A stretch of DNA of 24,684 bases from Synechococcales cyanobacterium RM1_1_8 (GTDB lineage Bacteria; Cyanobacteriota; Cyanobacteriia; PCC-9006; JAAUQQ01): contig JAAUQQ010000025.1 of NCBI GenBank assembly GCA_012032745.1, positions 1-24,684 of the forward strand, in the 5' to 3' direction. Every line of letters begins with the position of its first letter. Positions within the stretch are counted from its first letter, which is position 1. Position numbers and translations under genes: made by a program. Of this stretch, positions 2,510 through 16,172 are shown in pieces. A model generated the notes under the pieces. That model searched no databases, was not told the origin of the DNA, and worked only from the letters and a program-made list of their open reading frames with translations.

Positions 2510-2949
2510 ATAAGGCTCGACGACACGCCCAAACTGGGCTGATATATGGTTTTTTAAAGGGATTTTACAGGGATGCTGTGCCCTCGGACCCAGCGCTAGC
2601 CAGCACAAATCCTAGGCTTTGATAACATAATCCTATACTTCGCCCGAGGGGCCAACGCGGGTTTGATAAAGCTTAAGAAATATTTTGGCAAATTTGGGGC
2701 TTAAATCGCCCAGCGGGCGAGAAATGCAGTTTTGGAGTTCCGGATGGGTGGGACGTTGGGCAGGGGCGAACTAGGTTGTGCGCTCTAGGTCGTGCGATCG
2801 CCCCTGCTTGTCCGGAGCTGTGGGCGCGATCGCGCTGAAATCACCACGGAACCCCTTAGAATTTTTGCAGCTTTGTTTTGCAGCCTTGTCAGGGCTTACC
2901 CGCAAGCGACCTGCAAGCCCCATTCTCTCTCCACCGCTGAGGTCAAGCC

Positions 2950-4068
2950 ATGTTGCCGAATTCTCCTGCCGATGCTGCGGACATGTCCGGCATTACCCAG
3001 GTGTATCCGATTTTGTGGTGTGAGGATCACATTCTCCTGATCGATCAGACCCGCCTGCCTCGGGAATATGTGCTGGTGGACATCCGCCGGTCCAGCGACC
3101 TGGCCGAAGCGATTCGCACGATGATTGTGCGGGGAGCTCCGGCGATCGGCGTGGCCGCCGCCTATGGCATGTACCTGGGGGCCAAGGAACTGGCCGCAAC
3201 CCTTGGCGACTGGGATCGCCCCCGCTTCCTCGCTGGGCTGGCGGAAGTGGCGGCCATGCTGCGGGAAACGCGTCCCACGGCGGTGAACCTGTTTTGGGCA
3301 ATCGATCGCATGACTGGCCTGGCCCAGCACAGCCAAGCCGCCACGGCCCAGGCATGGGTGGCTGAACTCCTAGCCGAAGCCCAGGAGATCCACCTCTCAG
3401 ACCTCAAAACCTGCTACCGCATCGGCCAGCAGGGGTTGAATATTTTGCCCGATCGCCCCGAAAAACTGCGGATCATGACCCACTGCAATACGGGCTCCCT
3501 GGCCACGGCGGGCTATGGCACTGCCCTGGGAGTGGTGCGATCGGCCTGGCGATCGGGGCGGCTGGAGCGGGTCTATGCGGGGGAGACGCGGCCCCGGCTC
3601 CAAGGCGCGAAGCTGACCACCTGGGAATGCATCCAAGAAGACATTCCAGTCACGCTCATTACTGACAGCATGGCCGCCCACTGCATGGCCCAGGGGATGG
3701 TTGATCTGGTGATCGTCGGGGCTGATCGCATCGCCGCCAACGGCGACACCGCCAACAAAATCGGCACCTACAGTCTGGCCCTCGTGGCCAAGGCCCACAA
3801 CATTCCGTTCTACGTGGCGGCTCCCCTCTCCACGGTGGATTTCAGCCTCCCCGATGGCACCCAGATTCCCATCGAAGAGCGGGATCCCGCTGAGATTGCC
3901 CTGACCTGGGGAGAGCCGATCTGTCCTGCGGGCACTGAATTCTACAATCCCGCCTTCGATGTCACCCCAGCGGCCCTGATCACCGCTGTGATTACCGAAG
4001 AGGGCTGCGTCGCCCCAGAGGAACTGCCTAGCCTCGAACATGCCTTGCATCCCTCGGTGAAGCGCTAG
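2950..4068 (+). CDS. mtnA: S-methyl-5-thioribose-1-phosphate isomerase (eIF-2B alpha/beta/delta-like family)
   Basis: [42 protein letters not shown] and [18 protein letters not shown] are diagnostic MtnA blocks. An alternative start is the ATG at 2983. Confidence 0.9.
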
Positions 4069-4089
4069 GCCCAGTCAGCCCAGCCAGGT

Positions 4090-4467
4090 CTAATCGTCGA
4101 TCGCCTGGGAGGAAATCACTTCCACATCCACCGTGCCCGGCGGCGTCTGGCGCACAAACTGACGATCCTTAACCAAGAGCGACTCACCACAGCTCGGACA
4201 GGTCAGGGGCCTGCCCTGCAATGCACTCAGGGGAGCAGCGCAGACGGGGCAACTGCCCTGAACAATATTGCGATTGAGCCACCAGCGCAGGCCCACAAAC
4301 CCAACAATGGGGGCGATGACCACTAGGGCGACAAGAAAGGTCGAAAGCTCCACAAACCAATCGGGCAGGATGGAAATCAGCGCAAACAGCGCCACCAAGC
4401 CCAAGAGCAAACTGCCCAGGCCCCGAAGCTGAATTGACCGAACCTCACTAAACCGATTGGGATCCAT
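4090..4467 (-). CDS. small membrane protein with C-terminal zinc ribbon
   Basis: Two hydrophobic helices are followed by CPVC...x15...CPSC. I recognised no family. Confidence 0.55.
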   Translation of the reverse strand: MDPNRFSEVRSIQLRGLGSLLLGLVALFALISILPDWFVELSTFLVALVVIAPIVGFVGLRWWLNRNIVQGSCPVCAAPLSALQGRPLTCPSCGESLLVKDRQFVRQTPPGTVDVEVISSQAIDD

Positions 4468-8486: not shown

Positions 8487-10252
8487 GTGCAGAATTTGGA
8501 AGATCTCTGGGATATTTTGTCGGGGTTGGATGGACAGAGCTACGGGGCCTATAAGTCGATTCGAGGCGATTATCAGGCGGAGAGCTGGACGCTGTACATT
8601 GATAAGGTCCAGGGTGACCCCTTTGCGGCACCGAGCCTTTGCCGGGTGCTGGTGGAAGCGGACTATGCACAGTTGCCGGGCGAACTCTCGGCCAGTGAGA
8701 GCCGCATTTTGGGGCTAACGGATTTCTTGACGCGGCAGTTTGGTCAGGTGGCGCGGCAGTTGGGCCAGAGTCGGGGCTCGGGGGGCAGCGGGCGGATTGA
8801 GATGGCGCGGCCCAGTCAGGCGGTGCTGGTGCGGACGAGCGTGATTTGGCATGGGGGACTGAAGGCTGGGGGGCCGCTAGAAGCCCGGTTTACGGTGGGC
8901 CTGCCTGCCCAGGGACGGCGGATCTTGGGGCGACAGGCGGCGGCGATGTTCTGTGAGGATTTGCCGGAGATTGTGGCGCGATCGCTCTGTTACCCCGCCC
9001 TGGACGGCAATCAGTTGCTGGCGCATGTCAAAACGGTGGAGGATAGCCGCTGGTTGCGGGGCGAACTAAAAAGCCGGGGATTGGTGGCCTTTGTGCCCGA
9101 CGGCGCGGTGCTGGCGCGGCGCAGTGGCGTGGACGAACGGCCCCTGGAAGATGCGATCGCTTTCAATCCCCAGAGTCCTTGCGGGTGAGCTTTGACTGTC
9201 CCAACCGGGGCCAGATCTCGGGCCTGGGCATTCCCACGGGGGTGACCCTGATTGTGGGCGGCGGTTACCACGGCAAGTCAACGCTGTTGCAGGCGATCGA
9301 GGGGGGCGTTTACGACCATATTCCCGGCGATGGTCGGGAGCTGGTGGTGACTGATCCCAGCGCGGTGAAGGTACGGGCAGAGGATGGCCGAGCCGTGGCG
9401 GGGGTGAACCTGTCGCCGTTTATTAATCACTTGCCCCTGGGCCAATCGACGGTGCAGTTTTCCACGCCCAATGCCAGTGGCAGTACGTCCCAGGCGGCCA
9501 GCATCCTTGAGGCGCTGGAGGCGGGGGCGGGGGCCTTGCTGATGGATGAGGACACCTCGGCGACGAACTTCATGATTCGCGATCGCCGGATGCAGGCCCT
9601 AATCGCTAAGGAGCAGGAGCCGATTACGCCCTTTGTGGATAAGGTGCGGCAGTTGTGTGACGAACGAGGTGTTTCGACAATTCTGGTGATGGGGGGCAGT
9701 GGCGATTACTTTGAGGCGGCGGATCAGGTGATTGCCATGGATCAGTTTTTGCCTCGGGATGTGACGGCGGAGGCAAAGGCGATCGCGGCGGAGTTTGCCA
9801 CGGCGCGAATTGCGGAGGGGGGCGAAGGGTTCGGTGAGGTGACGGCGCGGCGGTTGCATTTGCAACGAGAGGAGGGGCGTCGAGAGCCTGGGCGAGGGCA
9901 GCGCTATGGCCGGGGTCGTCAGCGGGAACAGGATGATGGAGAGCGGCGGGTGAAGTCGAAGGTGCGGGGGCTGGATGGGCTTTCGATTGACCGGGAGGAG
10001 GTTGATTTGTCTGGGGTGGCGCAGTTGGTGGAGGACGGGCAGGTGAGGGCGATCGCGGCAGCTTTCGTTCAGCTTTACAGCCAGGGATTGGATGGCCAGG
10101 CGACGGTGGCGGAGGTGTTGGATGGGATTGAGGCGGCGATCGAGCGGGATGGCTTGGATGGGCTGACGACCTTGCTGCAAGGCAACCTGGTGCTGCCCCG
10201 GCGGCAGGATTTGGCGGCGGCGCTGAATCGCTGGCGAGCAGCGCATCTCTAA
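8487..10252 (+). pseudogene. ABC-class ATPase (PF09818-like 'predicted ATPase of the ABC class') split by a 1-nt frameshift near 9165-9180
   Basis: ORFs 8487..9188 and 9179..10252 are the N- and C-terminal halves of one protein family. The Walker A (GGGYHGKSTLL) lies just after the junction. The downstream frame already reads SPESLRVSF before ORF1 stops. Confidence 0.8.
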
Positions 10253-10325
10253 AGCTCTAATACTGCTCAGATCCGACGTTTCAGACTTGGCTGCATGGGA
10301 CAAATGTTGTGTAATAATTTACTCT
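10076..10325 (+). repeat. left copy of a ~250-bp direct repeat (3' end of the ATPase gene plus ~70 bp downstream)
   Basis: Colinear with 12428-12678 at offset 2352. By eye there are 5 substitutions and one 1-nt indel. Confidence 0.95.
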
Positions 10326-10408
10326 GTGCAGGCTCAGTCTATTCAATATTTCATGTGTCGCCGTAGCGAGTCGCTGCAATATTTCTATACGTTACATCCT
10401 AAAATCTA

Positions 10409-11071
10409 ATGACTACAAACTTTCAAGATGATGCGCGCGAAAGCAGTATGCGTGATCTATTTGAGCTTCAGAAAGATGAAGCAGAGGGGCGCTCTGGTAT
10501 AGATGCTTTTTTGCTTTTGGATGGTGAACGAATTCCGTTTGAGCTTAAAACGACTTCTAAAGGGTCCGTAACAACCGTTCGGGATTTTGGGCCTGATCAT
10601 ATTCAAAAATGGCAAGACAAACACTGGCTGATTGGTTTTTTCTTGAAGGGTAAAGAATATTACAAATATGCTTCTCCCTCTCAGATAAAGCCTTGGATTC
10701 AGAAGAAAGAACAGTATATTTCAAATGACTTCAAATTGGCAAATTTGCTGCCTAATAAAATTGATCTTGAAGACATGTATAAAATCCTGGGAGCTAAATC
10801 AGTCTATTCTTTAGCAGATGCAAAGTGCGTGCAGAAAAATCAGTATACAAAAGAAAAGTACTTAGAGCTTCAAGATTTGGAGTCAGGCTACAGCGCTCAT
10901 AGAATGTTGGACATTTTCCAGGATCGAGCTCGGTATTTACTTAAACGGGGGAGTACGCTGAATAATCCGCATATTCCACTCTCGTATTTCAAAGAATGTC
11001 CTGAAATAACTCAAGATCATGCTCAAAACCTTCGTCTCTTAGTTCGAGAATATTTTTTAAATTCTGCTTAG
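10409..11071 (+). CDS. putative Type II restriction endonuclease (PD-(D/E)XK-like), specificity unknown
   Basis: GIDAFLLLDGERIPFELKTT fits D...ExK. The gene is convergent with, and overlaps by 4 nt, an m5C methyltransferase gene, and it has the same AT-rich composition. I recognised no family. Confidence 0.5.
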   Translation: MTTNFQDDARESSMRDLFELQKDEAEGRSGIDAFLLLDGERIPFELKTTSKGSVTTVRDFGPDHIQKWQDKHWLIGFFLKGKEYYKYASPSQIKPWIQKKEQYISNDFKLANLLPNKIDLEDMYKILGAKSVYSLADAKCVQKNQYTKEKYLELQDLESGYSAHRMLDIFQDRARYLLKRGSTLNNPHIPLSYFKECPEITQDHAQNLRLLVREYFLNSA

Positions 11072-12285
11072 CTTTCTAGTGCTTCTAATACATTCTTAGC
11101 GACATGGTATGCCACAGGTGGAACGACGGAATTTCCAATTTGCCCTAGCCTTTGGTAGACTGCTCCTGAAAAATGCCAAGACTCCGGAAAACCCTGAAGT
11201 AAAGCAACGTCTTGAATAGATAGTCTAAAATGCTGATGCTTTGCGGGGAAGGCGGAAGCAGATTCTCTACTTTCTTGAACTCCATTGGGCCATATTTTCA
11301 TCTCTCCCCATGATTTCTGGCCTGCGGAGCTGTTCAGTATTGATGTTGTATTTCGTTTACCTGTAAAACCACTACGAATCGTAGGAGCCAAAGCGTCATA
11401 GTCAATATGAGTTAACCCTAGCGCTTCTCGAACGCCCATGGTTTTAGGAAGGCTTGCTTCAAATAGAGATAGACTGATGGGCTGATTTTGCTTTTGTAAA
11501 TGTCTCCAAGAATGTGTTGCTTGTGGAATCTTAAAATCCTTAAAGGCTGCTAGTTTTCTAAAGCCTACGAAGAACACACGCCGCCTAACTTGAGGTACGC
11601 CGAAATCAGCTGCGTGCATCTCAAATTTGACGATTGAGTATTCTGAAAGCTGATCGATAATAAACTTTTTTACAAAGTCATTAAACTTGGGATTGAGTAA
11701 ACCTAGAACATTCTCGGCAATGAAAGCGCTTGGTTTGATTGTATTAACTGCTCTATTGAACTCTCCCCACATATTTCTTTCATCATGAAGACCTTTCTGC
11801 TCGCCAGCAATTGAGAACGGCTGGCATGGTGGACCACCATGGATAACGTCTATTTCTCCCACGTAAGGCTGCCAGTTTATTTGGGTCACGTCACCTTCTT
11901 CAGGACCTCCATAAACCTTCCAGTCAGGGCAATTTAAGCGCAGCGTTTCTTTACAAATTGGAATGAGTTCATAGGATGCGATGTGTCTGTATCCTGCTCT
12001 AGATACGCCTAAATCTAATCCACCGCCACCACTAAACAAACTCAATGCAGTTAGTCCATGCTGGTCTAGCTGGGGCATCAGTGATAGGGGATCTAACAAA
12101 GGAGTATTAATAACGTGTACTCTCTCATGCAATCTTTTCACTGCATTCAGCTTGGCCATTCTAGATTCGTGAGATGTGCGCCTATATTCCTCGCGCTGCT
12201 CGGGTGATAAGTTATACTCTTTGCGAGCTTCATTTTTGTATACAGATAGCCTGGCTGATTGCTCTTTCATGATTACTAGCCTCAC
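11068..12285 (-). CDS. DNA (cytosine-5)-methyltransferase
   Basis: Motifs occur in canonical order: I LFSGGGGLDLG, IV GGPPCQPFS, VI FIAENVLGL, VIII QVRRRVFFVG, X GNSVVPPVA. A ~78-aa basic N-terminal extension precedes motif I. Confidence 0.93.
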   Translation of the reverse strand: MRLVIMKEQSARLSVYKNEARKEYNLSPEQREEYRRTSHESRMAKLNAVKRLHERVHVINTPLLDPLSLMPQLDQHGLTALSLFSGGGGLDLGVSRAGYRHIASYELIPICKETLRLNCPDWKVYGGPEEGDVTQINWQPYVGEIDVIHGGPPCQPFSIAGEQKGLHDERNMWGEFNRAVNTIKPSAFIAENVLGLLNPKFNDFVKKFIIDQLSEYSIVKFEMHAADFGVPQVRRRVFFVGFRKLAAFKDFKIPQATHSWRHLQKQNQPISLSLFEASLPKTMGVREALGLTHIDYDALAPTIRSGFTGKRNTTSILNSSAGQKSWGEMKIWPNGVQESRESASAFPAKHQHFRLSIQDVALLQGFPESWHFSGAVYQRLGQIGNSVVPPVAYHVAKNVLEALES

Positions 12286-12418
12286 TATGCTGACGTGGTA
12301 ATTGTAGAACAGGAGTACCGAAAAATCCAGGCTTAAATAAGCTTCGTATGGATGAAATAAATTTGTACCTTCCTAGGCTCTGGTATCGCTCACCAGGGTT
12401 GCTAAAGCCTTAGCGCTA

Positions 12419-12604
12419 GTGCGGTCATATAGCCAGGGATTGGATGGCCAGGCGACGGTGGCGGAGGTGTTGGATGGGATTGAGGCGGCGATCGAGCGGG
12501 ATGGCTTGGATGGGCTGACGACCTTGCTGCAAGGCAACCTGGCGCTGCCCCGGCGGCAGGATTTGGCGGCGGCGCTGAATCGCTGGCGAGCAGCGCATCT
12601 CTAA
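12419..12604 (+). pseudogene. orphan duplicated 3' fragment of the ABC-class ATPase gene
   Basis: The 61-aa ORF is identical to the C-terminus of 9179..10252 except V->A. It has no upstream part of the gene. Confidence 0.85.
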
Positions 12605-12678
12605 AGCTCTAATACTGCTCAGATCCGACATTTCAGACTTGGCTGCATGGGACAAATATTGTGTAATAACTTACCTCT
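12428..12678 (+). repeat. right copy of the ~250-bp direct repeat
   Basis: See 10076-10325. Confidence 0.95.
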
Positions 12679-12713
12679 CACATGCTCGGGCCTGTTGTAG
12701 CACAAAGCAAAAG

Positions 12714-12854
12714 ATGACTCCAGAACTCACTTGTCCTACCTGCTGCTCCTGCGACATTTCAAAGAGCGGAACAACGCGGCGAGGCAAACAAAACTACAAA
12801 TGCCGAGACTGCAACCGACAGTTTTGCCAATTCAGGGGGCTCCCCGTCTTCTAG
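12714..12854 (+). pseudogene. remnant of an IS1-family (InsA-like) transposase N-terminal zinc finger
   Basis: CPTCCSCDISKSGTTRRGKQNYKCRDCNRQF matches the CxxC-x(n)-GKQxYxCxxCxRQF pattern of IS1-type InsA. Only ~46 codons are present and no transposase body follows. Confidence 0.55.
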
Positions 12855-12990
12855 TTGTCGCGATAGGCAAATGTCATGTCTTGACACTTGATATGGGGTT
12901 ATGGGCGATCTCGGGCCTTCAACTCATGAAAATACCTCAGGTTGGAAACCCCTAGCCTTTAGGCAGGGGAGGAAAATCGGGACTGCGTCT

Positions 12991-14121
12991 TTAGGCGCAG
13001 TGGGCCGCTAAAAGCCCAGTAGAGCGGTGAATCAGTTCTACTTTTGATGCGGTGAACTGCCCTAGTCGTCTCCAGTTGGAGTCGGAGATAGAAACCTGAG
13101 TTTTTGTATCACCGCTGACCCAGCCGAAGAATTCTTTGCCAGCTTTCACCGCCCGAACAAAGTCACCTTTCCGTAATCCGTTGTGGCGAGTGATGGTGCC
13201 GCCATACTTCCGTCTTACTCCACCTTTGACAGGCTGAGCTAGATGTAGCTGTCTGCGGGAAATAGGTGGGCGTTTGATGATGCGAAATAGACCGTCGAGC
13301 GAAGTCTGAACAGCGCCAAACCAGTCAGCGCCATCAACACCTTGCTTGTAATGCTTGCGGTAGCCCACAAACTCACTAGAGGCCAATGCAACACCGTCAA
13401 CGGCATGGGAGGCAGGAGACTGTTCTTTCTTGTTGTGGGTCTTCTCCAGGCTTAGGTGATTACGAATCTGAGCAGTTTGCCAACCAAGTTGAGTCTTTAC
13501 CTTGGGGCCTAGCTTGGACAGCTCGGAAAGCATCCATTTTTGACGGACCATAACTGCTGAGAAACCTTTACCAGAACGCGCTTTTTTGCGTCCGCTGGTC
13601 AAATCAACATCGGCCTTGACGTACTCGTAAACAATAGAGCTGGCAGGGAATAGAACAAGCAGTTCTTTAACTACCCTGAGTTCAAGCTGACGATTAGCAC
13701 GAATAGAAGGAGCAACTTTCTTCTGGCGACGATTAGAGAACCTAGCCTGTCGGTGAGCCCGCAGATTGAAAGCAACCTTGCGATTGATTCTCCGACCACG
13801 CCGACCGCGCCGCATTAGTTTCTGGAATTCCTTGCGGTCTTTAACCCGCTTGAACGGCAAAACTAAGTGAGCTAGAAACAGCGTGAACTGGGAAGATTGA
13901 ACGCCAATGCCTGAGTAAAGCTTGCCGGGGTCAATACCAATGGCTATGGGTTGAGTCTTAGCGCCTGACGGTTCAGCGGTGAGCTGCACATACCAAACGT
14001 TAATATCAGACCAACGGCCTACAGCTTTGCCAGATTCGACCCATTTTCTAGCTCGCTTTGGGGTTGTGGGCATAAGCGGTTTTCCTTCTGGGTCTATAAC
14101 TGCGATTCGTTGAATTTGCAT
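12991..14121 (-). CDS. isrB: IsrB (HNH-less IscB-family OMEGA RNA-guided nickase)
   Basis: Domain order is PLMP motif (GKPLMPTTPKRARKW), RuvC-I (IGIDPGKLYSG), Arg-rich bridge helix (RRGRRGRRINRK...RFSNRRQKK), RuvC-II (IVYEYVKADVD), RuvC-III (SHAVDGVALAS), then a C-terminal GDFV...GKEFFGWVSG domain. The protein has a single Cys, so there is no HNH insert. Confidence 0.85.
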   Translation of the reverse strand: MQIQRIAVIDPEGKPLMPTTPKRARKWVESGKAVGRWSDINVWYVQLTAEPSGAKTQPIAIGIDPGKLYSGIGVQSSQFTLFLAHLVLPFKRVKDRKEFQKLMRRGRRGRRINRKVAFNLRAHRQARFSNRRQKKVAPSIRANRQLELRVVKELLVLFPASSIVYEYVKADVDLTSGRKKARSGKGFSAVMVRQKWMLSELSKLGPKVKTQLGWQTAQIRNHLSLEKTHNKKEQSPASHAVDGVALASSEFVGYRKHYKQGVDGADWFGAVQTSLDGLFRIIKRPPISRRQLHLAQPVKGGVRRKYGGTITRHNGLRKGDFVRAVKAGKEFFGWVSGDTKTQVSISDSNWRRLGQFTASKVELIHRSTGLLAAHCA

Positions 14122-14440
14122 TTTGGAGACAATCCCGCAAATGGTTTAAGTCCCTTACCCCAACGCGCCTAGAATGTCTTGCCTTTACGCAGCGCCTACA
14201 ACAACTAGGCTTAGAGTTAATCCGAACTAGGGAAGCATCCGGAAGTCTGTATCAAGGCGCGTCTCTAGGGGTAGTCAGCACTTAGTGGCTTGGTTGTTCA
14301 AGCCAAGCCCCCGATCTTTAGTCGGGGGTTGCTGACCTGCCAATCCCTGGGCTGGAGAAGTGAGGGTGACCCCCACCGCTAACCCTGCACGAGACCGAGA
14401 CAATGCCTCGGCCACCGCCAGCTCCCCATCAATGAACCTT
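14122..14440 (-). ncRNA. candidate omega-RNA scaffold (plus guide at its 5' end) of the IsrB locus; ends approximate
   Basis: The 332-nt gap directly 5' of isrB has no credible CDS and contains several perfect helices, including a three-way junction at 14274-14336. The position matches where IscB/IsrB omega-RNAs are encoded. Confidence 0.5.
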
Positions 14441-14453
14441 CGCTGCACCTTCT

Positions 14454-16172
14454 CTAAAGTTGAGAGAGGCTCCGGCGGGTTGGGCTGGCGCTCAGGGCTT
14501 GCCACTCGGACTGGCCGAGGTACTGGAGGCGGCGGCTAAGGAAGAAGCTGAGGCCGGAGATCAGCGCGAGGTGAGCGGCGATCGCCCCCACCGTATCTCC
14601 CCAGCCCAAGCCATGGAGCGCAGTGTAGGAAAACGTCGTCATCAGCCACAGCAGCCTGAACGGCGAATTATAGGAATCCAACCCCAGCATCCCCAAGACA
14701 ATCGGCAAGCCCAGAACCCAGGCCAAGACGATGCCAAAAGTGACCCAGCGCCCGTGGAGCAGATTCGCCAGGGCAACCCACTGCATCGCTAGGGCACAGC
14801 CCAGCAGCGAAGCCGCCGCAAAAAACCAACCGATGAGGCTCTCCGTGGCAATCCCCGTGGCTAGGTTCCCATGATGATTGAAGCCAATACCCACAAGCGC
14901 TACACCGGTGATAATCGCTAAGTTAACCGCCACCGCCAACACTGAGGGGCTGCCATCATGGCTCAGCAAATCGCCCAGGGGGCTGCGCTGGCCCTGGGGC
15001 CGCTGGTGGCGATACCTGGCCCAGTCCAGCACTGCCTGGCGGGGCGGCAGCAGTAAGAACATCAAAATCACCGCGCAGATCGCCATGGAGACAGGGTAGC
15101 TCCACAGCTCTGAATATCCATCCCAAGACTGCACAGTAAAGCCCATCATCAGCAGAGAGAGAAAGAGCGTCAGGCCATAGCTTTCCACCTTGCCCAAGGA
15201 GGTTTTGGCCGGGGTTTGAAACTTGCGCTCCAGCACCCGCCAAAACCAAGCGCCCAGGAGCAAAGCATTGGGCAAGGCCAGGAACAAATACTCGTCGCCG
15301 CCCTTACCCGCAGGCCAGAAAAACCAGCCCAAATCGCGAAAGCCATCTAAAGCAGCGCCGTCACTAAAGAGCCAAACGCTGCGGCCACTCCAGCCAGTTA
15401 CGTCCCAATAGGCCAGGAGCTGGAGCGGGTGGAACAGACGAAACCAATCCAAAGAACTGTTGCTCTGGTTGGCGGACCAGCCGCCACTGAGCAGTCCAAT
15501 GCTAATGCCAGAAATCAGCCAGGTCTGGAAGCCTTGCAGCCCCGGTGTCAGCAGGGCAAACCACATGGCAGCGGCGTAGAAGCAAAAGGCGATCGCCCCC
15601 AGCAAGCCATAAAACCCCAGCAAAATCTTCAAAGGATAGGTCGCCATCAGGCCCGTCGCCAGGTGTAGCGGCAACATTATGCCAGTGCCGAGATATGGCA
15701 GCACCGGCACCCCCAGCAGCTTGCCCAGCAAAATCTGACGGCTCGACTGGGGACTCATGCGCAAAAAATTGAGCGTGCCCCGGCGGGTTTCCTTGGAGAG
15801 ATCCGCCGCCAGCAGATAGACACCGCCAATGAGCAGCACCCAGACCAGGACAAAGCTCAGATCGCGAAACACATCGGCCCACACCAGGGGCCAGTCCAGT
15901 CGCGGCACGTTGTCGGGGCCGACCTGGCAGCCCGTTTCCACCTGCTTCAGGCAATACTCGATGCCTGGATAAAATTCATTGTTGGTTCTGGTCGGTAGCT
16001 GGGCAAGGCGTTGTAATAGCAAGAGCCCCTGCACCGCCATGGAGATCGCCAGGGTGATCAGTAGGTTGCGCCAGCGCAGTCGCCCCTGCCATTCCCGCAG
16101 GAGCTGGGGGTTGCGATTGCCCACATAATCAGCCGCAATTTCGGTCACATTTTCAATCAGTTTGGAGGCCAT
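14454..16172 (-). CDS. ABC-2-type transporter permease (large polytopic membrane protein)
   Basis: More than 10 hydrophobic segments. The start overlaps the stop of the upstream ABC ATPase gene by 1 nt (16172). Confidence 0.7.
   Translation of the reverse strand: MASKLIENVTEIAADYVGNRNPQLLREWQGRLRWRNLLITLAISMAVQGLLLLQRLAQLPTRTNNEFYPGIEYCLKQVETGCQVGPDNVPRLDWPLVWADVFRDLSFVLVWVLLIGGVYLLAADLSKETRRGTLNFLRMSPQSSRQILLGKLLGVPVLPYLGTGIMLPLHLATGLMATYPLKILLGFYGLLGAIAFCFYAAAMWFALLTPGLQGFQTWLISGISIGLLSGGWSANQSNSSLDWFRLFHPLQLLAYWDVTGWSGRSVWLFSDGAALDGFRDLGWFFWPAGKGGDEYLFLALPNALLLGAWFWRVLERKFQTPAKTSLGKVESYGLTLFLSLLMMGFTVQSWDGYSELWSYPVSMAICAVILMFLLLPPRQAVLDWARYRHQRPQGQRSPLGDLLSHDGSPSVLAVAVNLAIITGVALVGIGFNHHGNLATGIATESLIGWFFAAASLLGCALAMQWVALANLLHGRWVTFGIVLAWVLGLPIVLGMLGLDSYNSPFRLLWLMTTFSYTALHGLGWGDTVGAIAAHLALISGLSFFLSRRLQYLGQSEWQALSASPTRRSLSQL

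Follow-up and report, generated by a model that had tools for sequence, protein, structure and literature searches.

A putative Type II restriction-modification pair between two copies of an ATPase gene end supports insertion with long target duplication in a cyanobacterial contig

INTRODUCTION

The movement of restriction-modification (R-M) genes without a transposase or integrase is still mechanistically unexplained, and the locus described here raises the question of how one such gene pair came to lie where it does. The locus is in a 24,684-nt stretch of DNA (contig JAAUQQ010000025.1; hereafter the window) from Synechococcales cyanobacterium RM1_1_8, a metagenome-assembled genome (MAG) built from short reads. 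In this window, a foreign pair of genes, predicted to encode a restriction endonuclease (R) and a C5-cytosine DNA methyltransferase (M), lies 3' of an ABC-class ATPase gene and is flanked on both sides by a copy of the end of that gene. An earlier note on this DNA, made from the sequence alone, had read this arrangement as the signature of "insertion with long target duplication", which is a class defined by Nobusato, Uchiyama, Ohashi & Kobayashi (2000, Gene 259:99) and surveyed by Furuta, Abe & Kobayashi (2010, NAR 38:2428, PMC2853133). The published repeats of this class range from 46 to ~420 bp, often lie across start or stop codons and come from several phyla, with one cyanobacterial case in Microcystis (88 bp); flanking repeats are significantly in excess around R-M genes (PMC2853133).

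Our analysis confirmed the repeat-flanked foreign gene pair. It also supported the central interpretation of the earlier note, because five lines of evidence agree: the identities of the two genes, the conservation of the pair, an excess of flanking repeats around its homologs, empty sites at a sibling locus, and the existence of a published class. Thus, we think it likely that a foreign Type II R-M unit was inserted 3' of the ATPase gene with duplication of ~250 bp of its target.

RESULTS

The gene pair lies between two nearly identical copies of the ATPase gene end

The features that define the locus are as follows.

8487-10252, plus strand: ABC-class ATPase gene (ABC_N, ABC_ATPase P-loop and MRB1590_C in Pfam), split in two open reading frames (ORFs)
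10076-10322, plus strand: left repeat copy, the last 58 ATPase codons, the stop codon and 70 nt of 3' flank
10323-12430, no strand: inserted AT-rich segment, 2108 bp, G+C 0.418, with neither HIP1 nor CGATCG
12428-12674, plus strand: right repeat copy, an orphan 3' ATPase fragment with the 70-nt tail and an ortholog-like Ala codon at 12542-12544

A repeat search of the window identified two copies of 247 nt that are 98% identical at an offset of 2352, and comparison of one flank with the other by BLAST gave E = 2e-121. Base-by-base comparison agreed with the colinear direct repeats of the earlier note, including its five substitutions (left/right: 10078 C/T; 10191 T/C, in the Val/Ala codon; 10278 G/A; 10306 G/A; 10318 T/C), and showed a core at 10079-10322 of 244 bp with four differences, as well as stretches of 112 and 86 bp that are identical between the copies. 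The alignment has no indel, and the copies diverge abruptly from 10323/12675 onward; the 1-nt indel that had been claimed is not needed, since it merely extends the match by TCT past the true boundary. The composition of the repeat was as described, that is, the last 58 codons (10076-10249), the stop codon (10250-10252) and 70 nt of 3' flank (10253-10322). The earlier note had also allowed that the unit might prove to be a dispersed multi-copy repeat; within the 24.7-kb window, it occurs only twice. One consequence for annotation concerns the 61-codon ORF at 12419-12604, which is an orphan gene fragment.

The intervening segment differs from its surroundings, as had been proposed. Its G+C content is 0.418, compared to 0.591 on the left side and 0.633 within the ATPase gene, and none of the 28 occurrences of HIP1 (GCGATCGC) in the window falls inside it. 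Between the repeats, just two ORFs reach 100 aa, 10409-11071 (plus) and 11068-12270/12285 (minus); they are convergent and have overlapping stop codons. ORF and Pfam scans detected no integrase or transposase within the insert or at the repeats, and no recombinase domain in any ORF lying between the copies or next to them. Thus the ORF list, together with the predicted fold and the motifs given below, bears out the claim that the insert encodes only a nuclease/m5C-methyltransferase pair. The part of the insert shared with a cassette of 80% identity on contig L150 is 10386-12362. We considered and rejected a longer duplication, later truncated by the IS1-type fragment on the right (see below), as no second copy of the non-coding ends of the insert exists elsewhere in the window.

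The closest relatives of the ATPase gene that we found in a protein search (on contigs L083 and L084; 83% aa and ~80% nt identity) are syntenic with the window upstream and carry the 3' end of the gene once; each of the two window copies can be aligned with this one segment. Comparison with these relatives also revealed that the host gene itself is interrupted. Three-frame translation placed the reading frame in ORF 8487-9188 and its resumption in ORF 9179-10252, with a -1 frameshift near 9166, where the window has one base fewer than L083 and L084; the orthologs are uninterrupted and 599-602 aa long. The ATPase gene is therefore probably a pseudogene, the alternative being a sequence error in the MAG. 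Hence the statement that the left copy keeps the host gene intact holds for the 3' end and fails for the gene, which has this 1-nt deletion relative to both orthologs.

The two genes encode a putative Type II R-M system

The two genes between the repeats are as follows.

10409-11071, plus strand: restriction endonuclease gene (R), 220 aa, PD-(D/E)XK motif D32...E45-L-K47, PvuII-like predicted fold
11068-12270, minus strand: C5-cytosine DNA methyltransferase gene (M), 400 aa from the ATG at 12270, PF00145

R had no match in sequence searches of Pfam (E <= 0.01), NCBIfam or the PDB, and thus its family assignment comes from the predicted fold. An AlphaFold model built on an alignment of 25 homologs, in which D32, E45 and K47 are invariant, had a mean pLDDT of 86.4, and in a Foldseek search of the PDB with this model the top 12 matches were all PvuII (E ~2e-5; TM score 0.42 by query and 0.59 by target). 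R scores below the gathering score of the Pfam PvuII model (PF09225), for which some homologs have only precomputed matches described as "faint". Thus, the model confirms R as a predicted PvuII-fold PD-(D/E)XK nuclease, with a likeness to PvuII that is structural only. M is more easily recognized: it matched PF00145 (1e-54), TIGR00675 (9e-46) and the structures of M.HaeIII and M.HhaI (1e-23 to 1e-29), and it has the GGPPCQ, ENV, QRR and GNSV motifs. By their motifs and their conserved linkage, R and M qualify as a putative Type II R-M system.

We also counted palindromes, using 43 non-redundant R-M units drawn from contigs L085-L149. GGGCCC was the most depleted palindrome in these units (1 observed vs 10 expected) and was likewise low in the host DNA of the window, that is, outside 10076-14453 (2 vs 10.2). 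CAGCTG was also low (6 vs 15.3 in the R-M units; 3 vs 12.2 in the window host DNA). The depletion counts offer a weak lead to GGGCCC and CAGCTG as candidate recognition sites.

Homologous units are widespread and have an excess of flanking direct repeats

Homologs of R are abundant (more than 1000 at 63-90% identity), spread over unrelated phyla and all annotated as hypothetical. We examined their neighborhoods in 61 metagenome loci and in contexts from protein look-ups, and found R followed by an orthologous M (52-74% aa identity to window M) in every locus with enough sequence (~50), in convergent or co-directional arrangement. Thus, the R-M pair is a conserved and widely spread family.

To survey the flanks, we compared 2.5 kb on each side of each unit and scored direct repeats of at least 50 bp. 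Such repeats were found in the window (247 bp) and in L085 (138 bp), L087 (178 bp), L092 (88 bp), L106 (177 bp), L109 (162 bp), L114 (63 bp), L127 (107 bp) and L128 (51 bp). When redundant loci were removed and at least 1 kb of sequence was required on either side, 8/23 loci were repeat-flanked, compared to 8/376 size-matched pseudo-units positioned within 21-kb control loci (odds ratio 24.5; Fisher p = 3e-7). There were no inverted repeats of at least 50 bp flanking units in the surveyed loci. The copies enclose nothing but R and M in L087, L109, L114 and L127, as is also the case in the window. The flanking repeats of different loci have no common sequence; thus, their source is the local target in each case rather than the element.

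These results bear on a different origin of the repeat, in which the unit either landed within a pre-existing tandem or dispersed repeat or is bounded by the attachment (att) sites of a site-specific integrase. Chance insertion between repeats and site-specific recombination are both listed as classes by Furuta et al. We consider such an origin very improbable here: there are only two copies in the window and a single one at each of the orthologous loci L083 and L084, and the repeats at sibling loci all differ, each coming from its local target, while neither an integrase or recombinase gene in or beside the insert nor a tRNA gene in the window was detected. An att-flanked integrative element in particular was rejected for the last two reasons, the lack of a recombinase domain between or beside the repeats and of any tRNA gene in the window.

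We also considered a plasmid or phage as the vehicle. We found no R homologs in 72,556 plasmids or in 50,697 phage genomes, and only two in 2.9 million IMG/VR contigs, neither with flanking repeats. Such a vehicle therefore has no support.

Two empty sites define the duplication at a sibling locus

A comparison with empty sites was possible for locus L087, whose unit is an ortholog of the window cassette. In L087, the 3' end of preA is duplicated (160-178 bp) on both sides of the R-M unit. In two related contigs, L153 and L154 (84-89% nt identity to the L087 flanks), the same segment is single-copy, there is no PvuII-like R-M unit, and the 3' end of preA runs straight into the next gene. L153 and L154 are thus true empty sites for L087, and it is by a comparison of this kind that the class of insertions with long target duplication is defined. 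The repeat excess, these empty sites and the published class agree in supporting the same signature for the window.

The preA/preT operon in these contigs has other rearrangements. L153 (2212-4625) and L154 (2230-4626) each carry another R-M pair, consisting of an N4/N6 methyltransferase and a BsoBI-like nuclease and fragmented in L154, between a peptidase gene and preT of the same operon; at the corresponding spot, L087 (2640-3000) has a tandem duplication of ~180 bp with no insert. This operon looks like a hot spot for R-M insertion. Furthermore, an extra segment of ~960 bp with a DUF4846 gene extends from the right copy to an amidohydrolase gene in L087 (8493-9452) and is absent from the empty sites, and ~20 nt of the target are repeated once more at 9433-9453. 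The extra segment and the third target repeat indicate that the site was hit more than once.

Contigs from other sequencing runs reproduce the left junction

Three further contigs match the locus. A 100% identical contig comes from run SRR11470444. Logan contig L001, from a different run, corresponds to window 10248-11702 apart from one single-nucleotide polymorphism (SNP), and it reads through the left junction with the alleles of the left copy. Its first base is exactly 30 nt before the SNP at 10278 that distinguishes the copies, a start point that we infer reflects the behavior of a k=31 graph when two repeat copies are present. Logan contig L002 is 100% identical to 10820-12429, ends at the repeat boundary and holds the exact 400-aa M. 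L152, from a third run, bears a cassette of 86% nt identity and has the same tail-to-insert junction, with G, G and T at the three variable tail positions.

We considered that the structure might instead be an assembly conflation, in which an empty-site chromosome and a circular or tandem R-M element carrying the segment, or else two strains, were threaded together. Such a mixture has the same four junctions as the integrated arrangement, the source is a metagenome-assembled genome with the locus on a 24,958-bp contig, the identical 112- and 86-bp stretches exceed typical metagenome k-mers, and the start of L001 and the end of L002 fall where graph branches would place them; with the alternative phasing, moreover, one copy would have all of the ortholog- or L152-like alleles and the other all of the derived ones. 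However, the junction between the insert and ATPase codon -58 is present in the reads under either phasing, and thus the physical joining of the R-M unit to an ATPase fragment is real. In addition, reads of 100-150 nt span the 86-bp identical stretch, which makes correct phasing likely, and sibling loci on long contigs and in isolate-scale assemblies share the integrated architecture. We regard conflation as improbable, although less so than the pre-existing repeat or att sites considered above.

Alleles and edges of the repeat

Two features describe the fading edges of the repeat.

10323-10339, plus strand: degenerate rightward extension of the left copy, with patchy similarity to 12675-12691
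12401-12430, plus strand: degenerate leftward extension of the right copy, AKALALVRSY vs AIAAALVQLY in the ortholog, 17/30 nt matching L084

At the Val/Ala site, the orthologs encode Ala, as does the right copy, and the left copy encodes Val; at a second coding difference, the orthologs and the right copy read A-L-V and the left copy A-F-V. Judged by the orthologs, the ancestral coding states thus sit in the orphan right copy, and the left copy has an A to V change. The earlier note had described the right copy as an orphan fragment with a V to A change; the fragment is indeed an orphan, and the polarity of the change is the reverse. In the tail, the left copy has G, G and T, as in the cassette-linked tail of L152, and the right copy has A, A and C.

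Faded homology beyond the repeat core is confined to the inner sides, where it covers 30 nt at the right copy and 17 nt at the left. The blastn extensions of the right copy to L083 and L084 begin at 12413, and L152 has GCTCGGGC at the left-copy extension, identical to 12684-12691. Three readings would account for this pattern of alleles and edges. The junctions may have formed where homology was patchy, gene conversion may have kept uniform the core of an older and longer duplication, or a copy carried by the cassette may have undergone a Campbell crossover with the chromosomal copy. The choice among them rests on four SNPs and 47 nt, which is too thin to decide.

The last of these readings corresponds to a rival account of the whole locus, in which the R-M unit arrived as a circle that already bore the ATPase 3' segment once, and one crossover between homologous sequences within this segment integrated it. 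The circle would have come from a repeat-mediated pop-out in a related donor, so that the original duplication occurred earlier, in another lineage, and this account partly overlaps with the one we prefer. It fits the phasing of the SNPs, with a crossover between 10191 and 10278, since the left copy combines the derived Val codon with G, G and T and the right copy combines the ortholog-like Ala codon with A, A and C; but this argument relies on four SNPs, for which the probability of the phasing by chance is ~1/16. Similarly, L152 has the same tail-to-insert junction with G, G and T, although L152 may represent this very insertion as passed down in a related lineage. Degenerate homology marks both inner edges, which would be circle-derived in this model, and the repeats are 98% identical while the cassette differs from that of L152 by 14%. 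However, neither a circle junction nor a donor was observed, and a double crossover in flanking homology would give the same structure without a circle. We consider Campbell-type integration rather unlikely, though clearly the strongest competitor to insertion with long target duplication at this site.

A related idea, which we hold only tentatively and give no greater weight than the Campbell crossover itself, is that the R-M pair and one copy of the target may together constitute a module that propagates itself. A circle released by recombination between the repeats would carry ~250-290 bp of the ATPase locus as portable homology, it would re-enter related genomes by Campbell integration, and gene conversion would hold the repeat cores near-identical while their edges decay. 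Such a module would fit the mosaic phasing of the SNPs, the cassette-linked tail of L152 and the patchy homology at the inner edges. An "invade - amplify - release" cycle has been hypothesised by Kobayashi's group; by their own account, release and reinfection are without experimental evidence.

The R-M unit is part of a small islet of foreign DNA

The features to the right of the repeat are as follows.

12714-12854, plus strand: IS1/IS1595-type transposase zinc-ribbon remnant, 46 codons (NF050000, 9e-10)
12991-14121, minus strand: IsrB-type protein, 376 aa, RRXRR, PLMP motif, no HNH (PF14239, 1e-43; partial NCBIfam IscB match)
14144-14336, minus strand: HEARO/omega-RNA (RF02033), full-length, directly upstream of IsrB

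The insert is not the only foreign DNA at this site, since beyond the right copy lie a fragment of IS1 type and an IsrB/omega-RNA element. The IS1/IS1595-type remnant begins 40 nt past the right copy and has no transposase body, and thus is a truncated insertion sequence (IS). The HEARO match has 56.8 bits (E 2e-10), which is below the gathering score of 83, and from its protein and RNA matches 12991-14336 (minus strand) is a predicted IsrB-type OMEGA element; the exact IsrB protein has no other record in the contig index. Absence of HIP1 extends over this whole region: the HIP1-free tract is 10050-14577 (4.5 kb), wider than the insert, and takes in the IS1 fragment and the IsrB element as well as the R-M insert and the right repeat copy, compared to ~1.2 HIP1 per kb elsewhere. 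Thus, the extent of this tract to 14577 and the neighboring elements make the R-M insert part of a small foreign-DNA islet.

We note several further observations. A HIP1 site lies at 10049, just left of the left copy, and its counterpart beside the right copy reads GCTAAAGC. In L150, a DDE transposase gene with flanking 23-bp inverted repeats (2747-4092) adjoins the 80%-identical cassette. L150 and L084 come from one metagenome, and L084 ends at the ATPase stop codon (8719-8720); no overlap was found between the two. Promoter and terminator scans of 10000-13000 gave counts at background.

DISCUSSION

Our preferred account of this locus begins with incoming DNA that would have been joined to the chromosome by illegitimate recombination, guided by patchy homology, at two positions ~250-290 bp apart. 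Sister duplexes or a replication fork probably supplied these two positions, and the interval between them would thereby be copied on both sides of the insert. Once in place, the unit could act as both a defence and an addiction module, in which the methylase would protect the genome and the nuclease would cut unmodified DNA. The flanking repeats would permit RecA-dependent pop-out or amplification, loss of the unit would be penalised by post-segregational killing, and spread among related strains could rely on homology supplied by the repeat or the flanks. For Type II R-M systems, such killing is itself well established.

Several points weigh against insertion with long target duplication in the window itself. 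First, no empty site was found for this locus: a scan of contigs with the C-terminal half of the ATPase gave nothing closer than 63% aa identity, and searching for the exact R and M proteins led only to short Logan contigs. Empty sites were found for the sibling L087, and the nearest relatives of the window have only ~80% nt identity. Second, similarity of L083 and L084 to the window ends exactly at the ATPase stop codon, and with this loss of synteny a native host origin of the 70-nt tail cannot be shown. Third, the source is a short-read MAG, and the right inner (12430/12431) and outer (12674/12675) junctions are crossed by no independent contig. Fourth, the edges of the repeat are not sharp, and patchy similarity is not predicted by a simple staggered insertion. 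Fifth, the IS1 fragment and IsrB debris adjoin the right copy, and Furuta et al. excluded such cases. Finally, the biochemical step behind long duplications is unknown in the literature (Furuta 2010, PMC2853133), where the authors go no further than to propose some property shared by R-M systems, such as double-strand breakage (PMC2853133).

We nonetheless find the assignment of this locus to the class of insertions with long target duplication to be supported. New here are a cyanobacterial case with an unusually long and well-preserved repeat, a recurrent PvuII-fold/m5C family, and the fading edges. The locus is a compact and well-preserved example, with both genes intact and a 247-bp repeat of 98% identity, and its uncharacterised, metagenome-abundant R-M family offers a practical model for the origin of long target duplications, as well as for repeat-driven excision, amplification or re-integration.

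Comparison with known systems

R shares with PvuII (PDB 1pvi, 1k0z; PF09225) the predicted PD-(D/E)XK core with D...E-L-K, a small size and the pairing with a cytosine methyltransferase. In contrast, R has only 13-15% sequence identity to PvuII and is ~65 residues longer, with an extra helical C-terminal region. The partners also differ, since that of R is a predicted C5 methyltransferase whereas M.PvuII acts on cytosine at N4.

The amplification and excision of R-M units via long flanking repeats (ref. 84 in Furuta 2010) has a counterpart here in two repeats that flank an intact R-M pair; from the architecture of the window, the same repeat-mediated pop-out or tandem amplification may be available to this unit.

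The closest likeness is to the long-target-duplication class as a whole. By the limits that Furuta et al. (2010) set, both R and M lie within the insert, which at 2108 bp is well under 20 kb, and the repeat is longer than 30 bp. As in that class, the insert has only R and M, the repeat spans the stop codon of the neighboring gene, the G+C content of the insert is unlike that of the host, and no integrase or transposase lies inside. The window differs from the class in the IS and IsrB debris beside the right copy and in the fading edges of the repeat, and also in that an orthologous R-M pair repeats the same pattern in unrelated phyla (8/23 loci).

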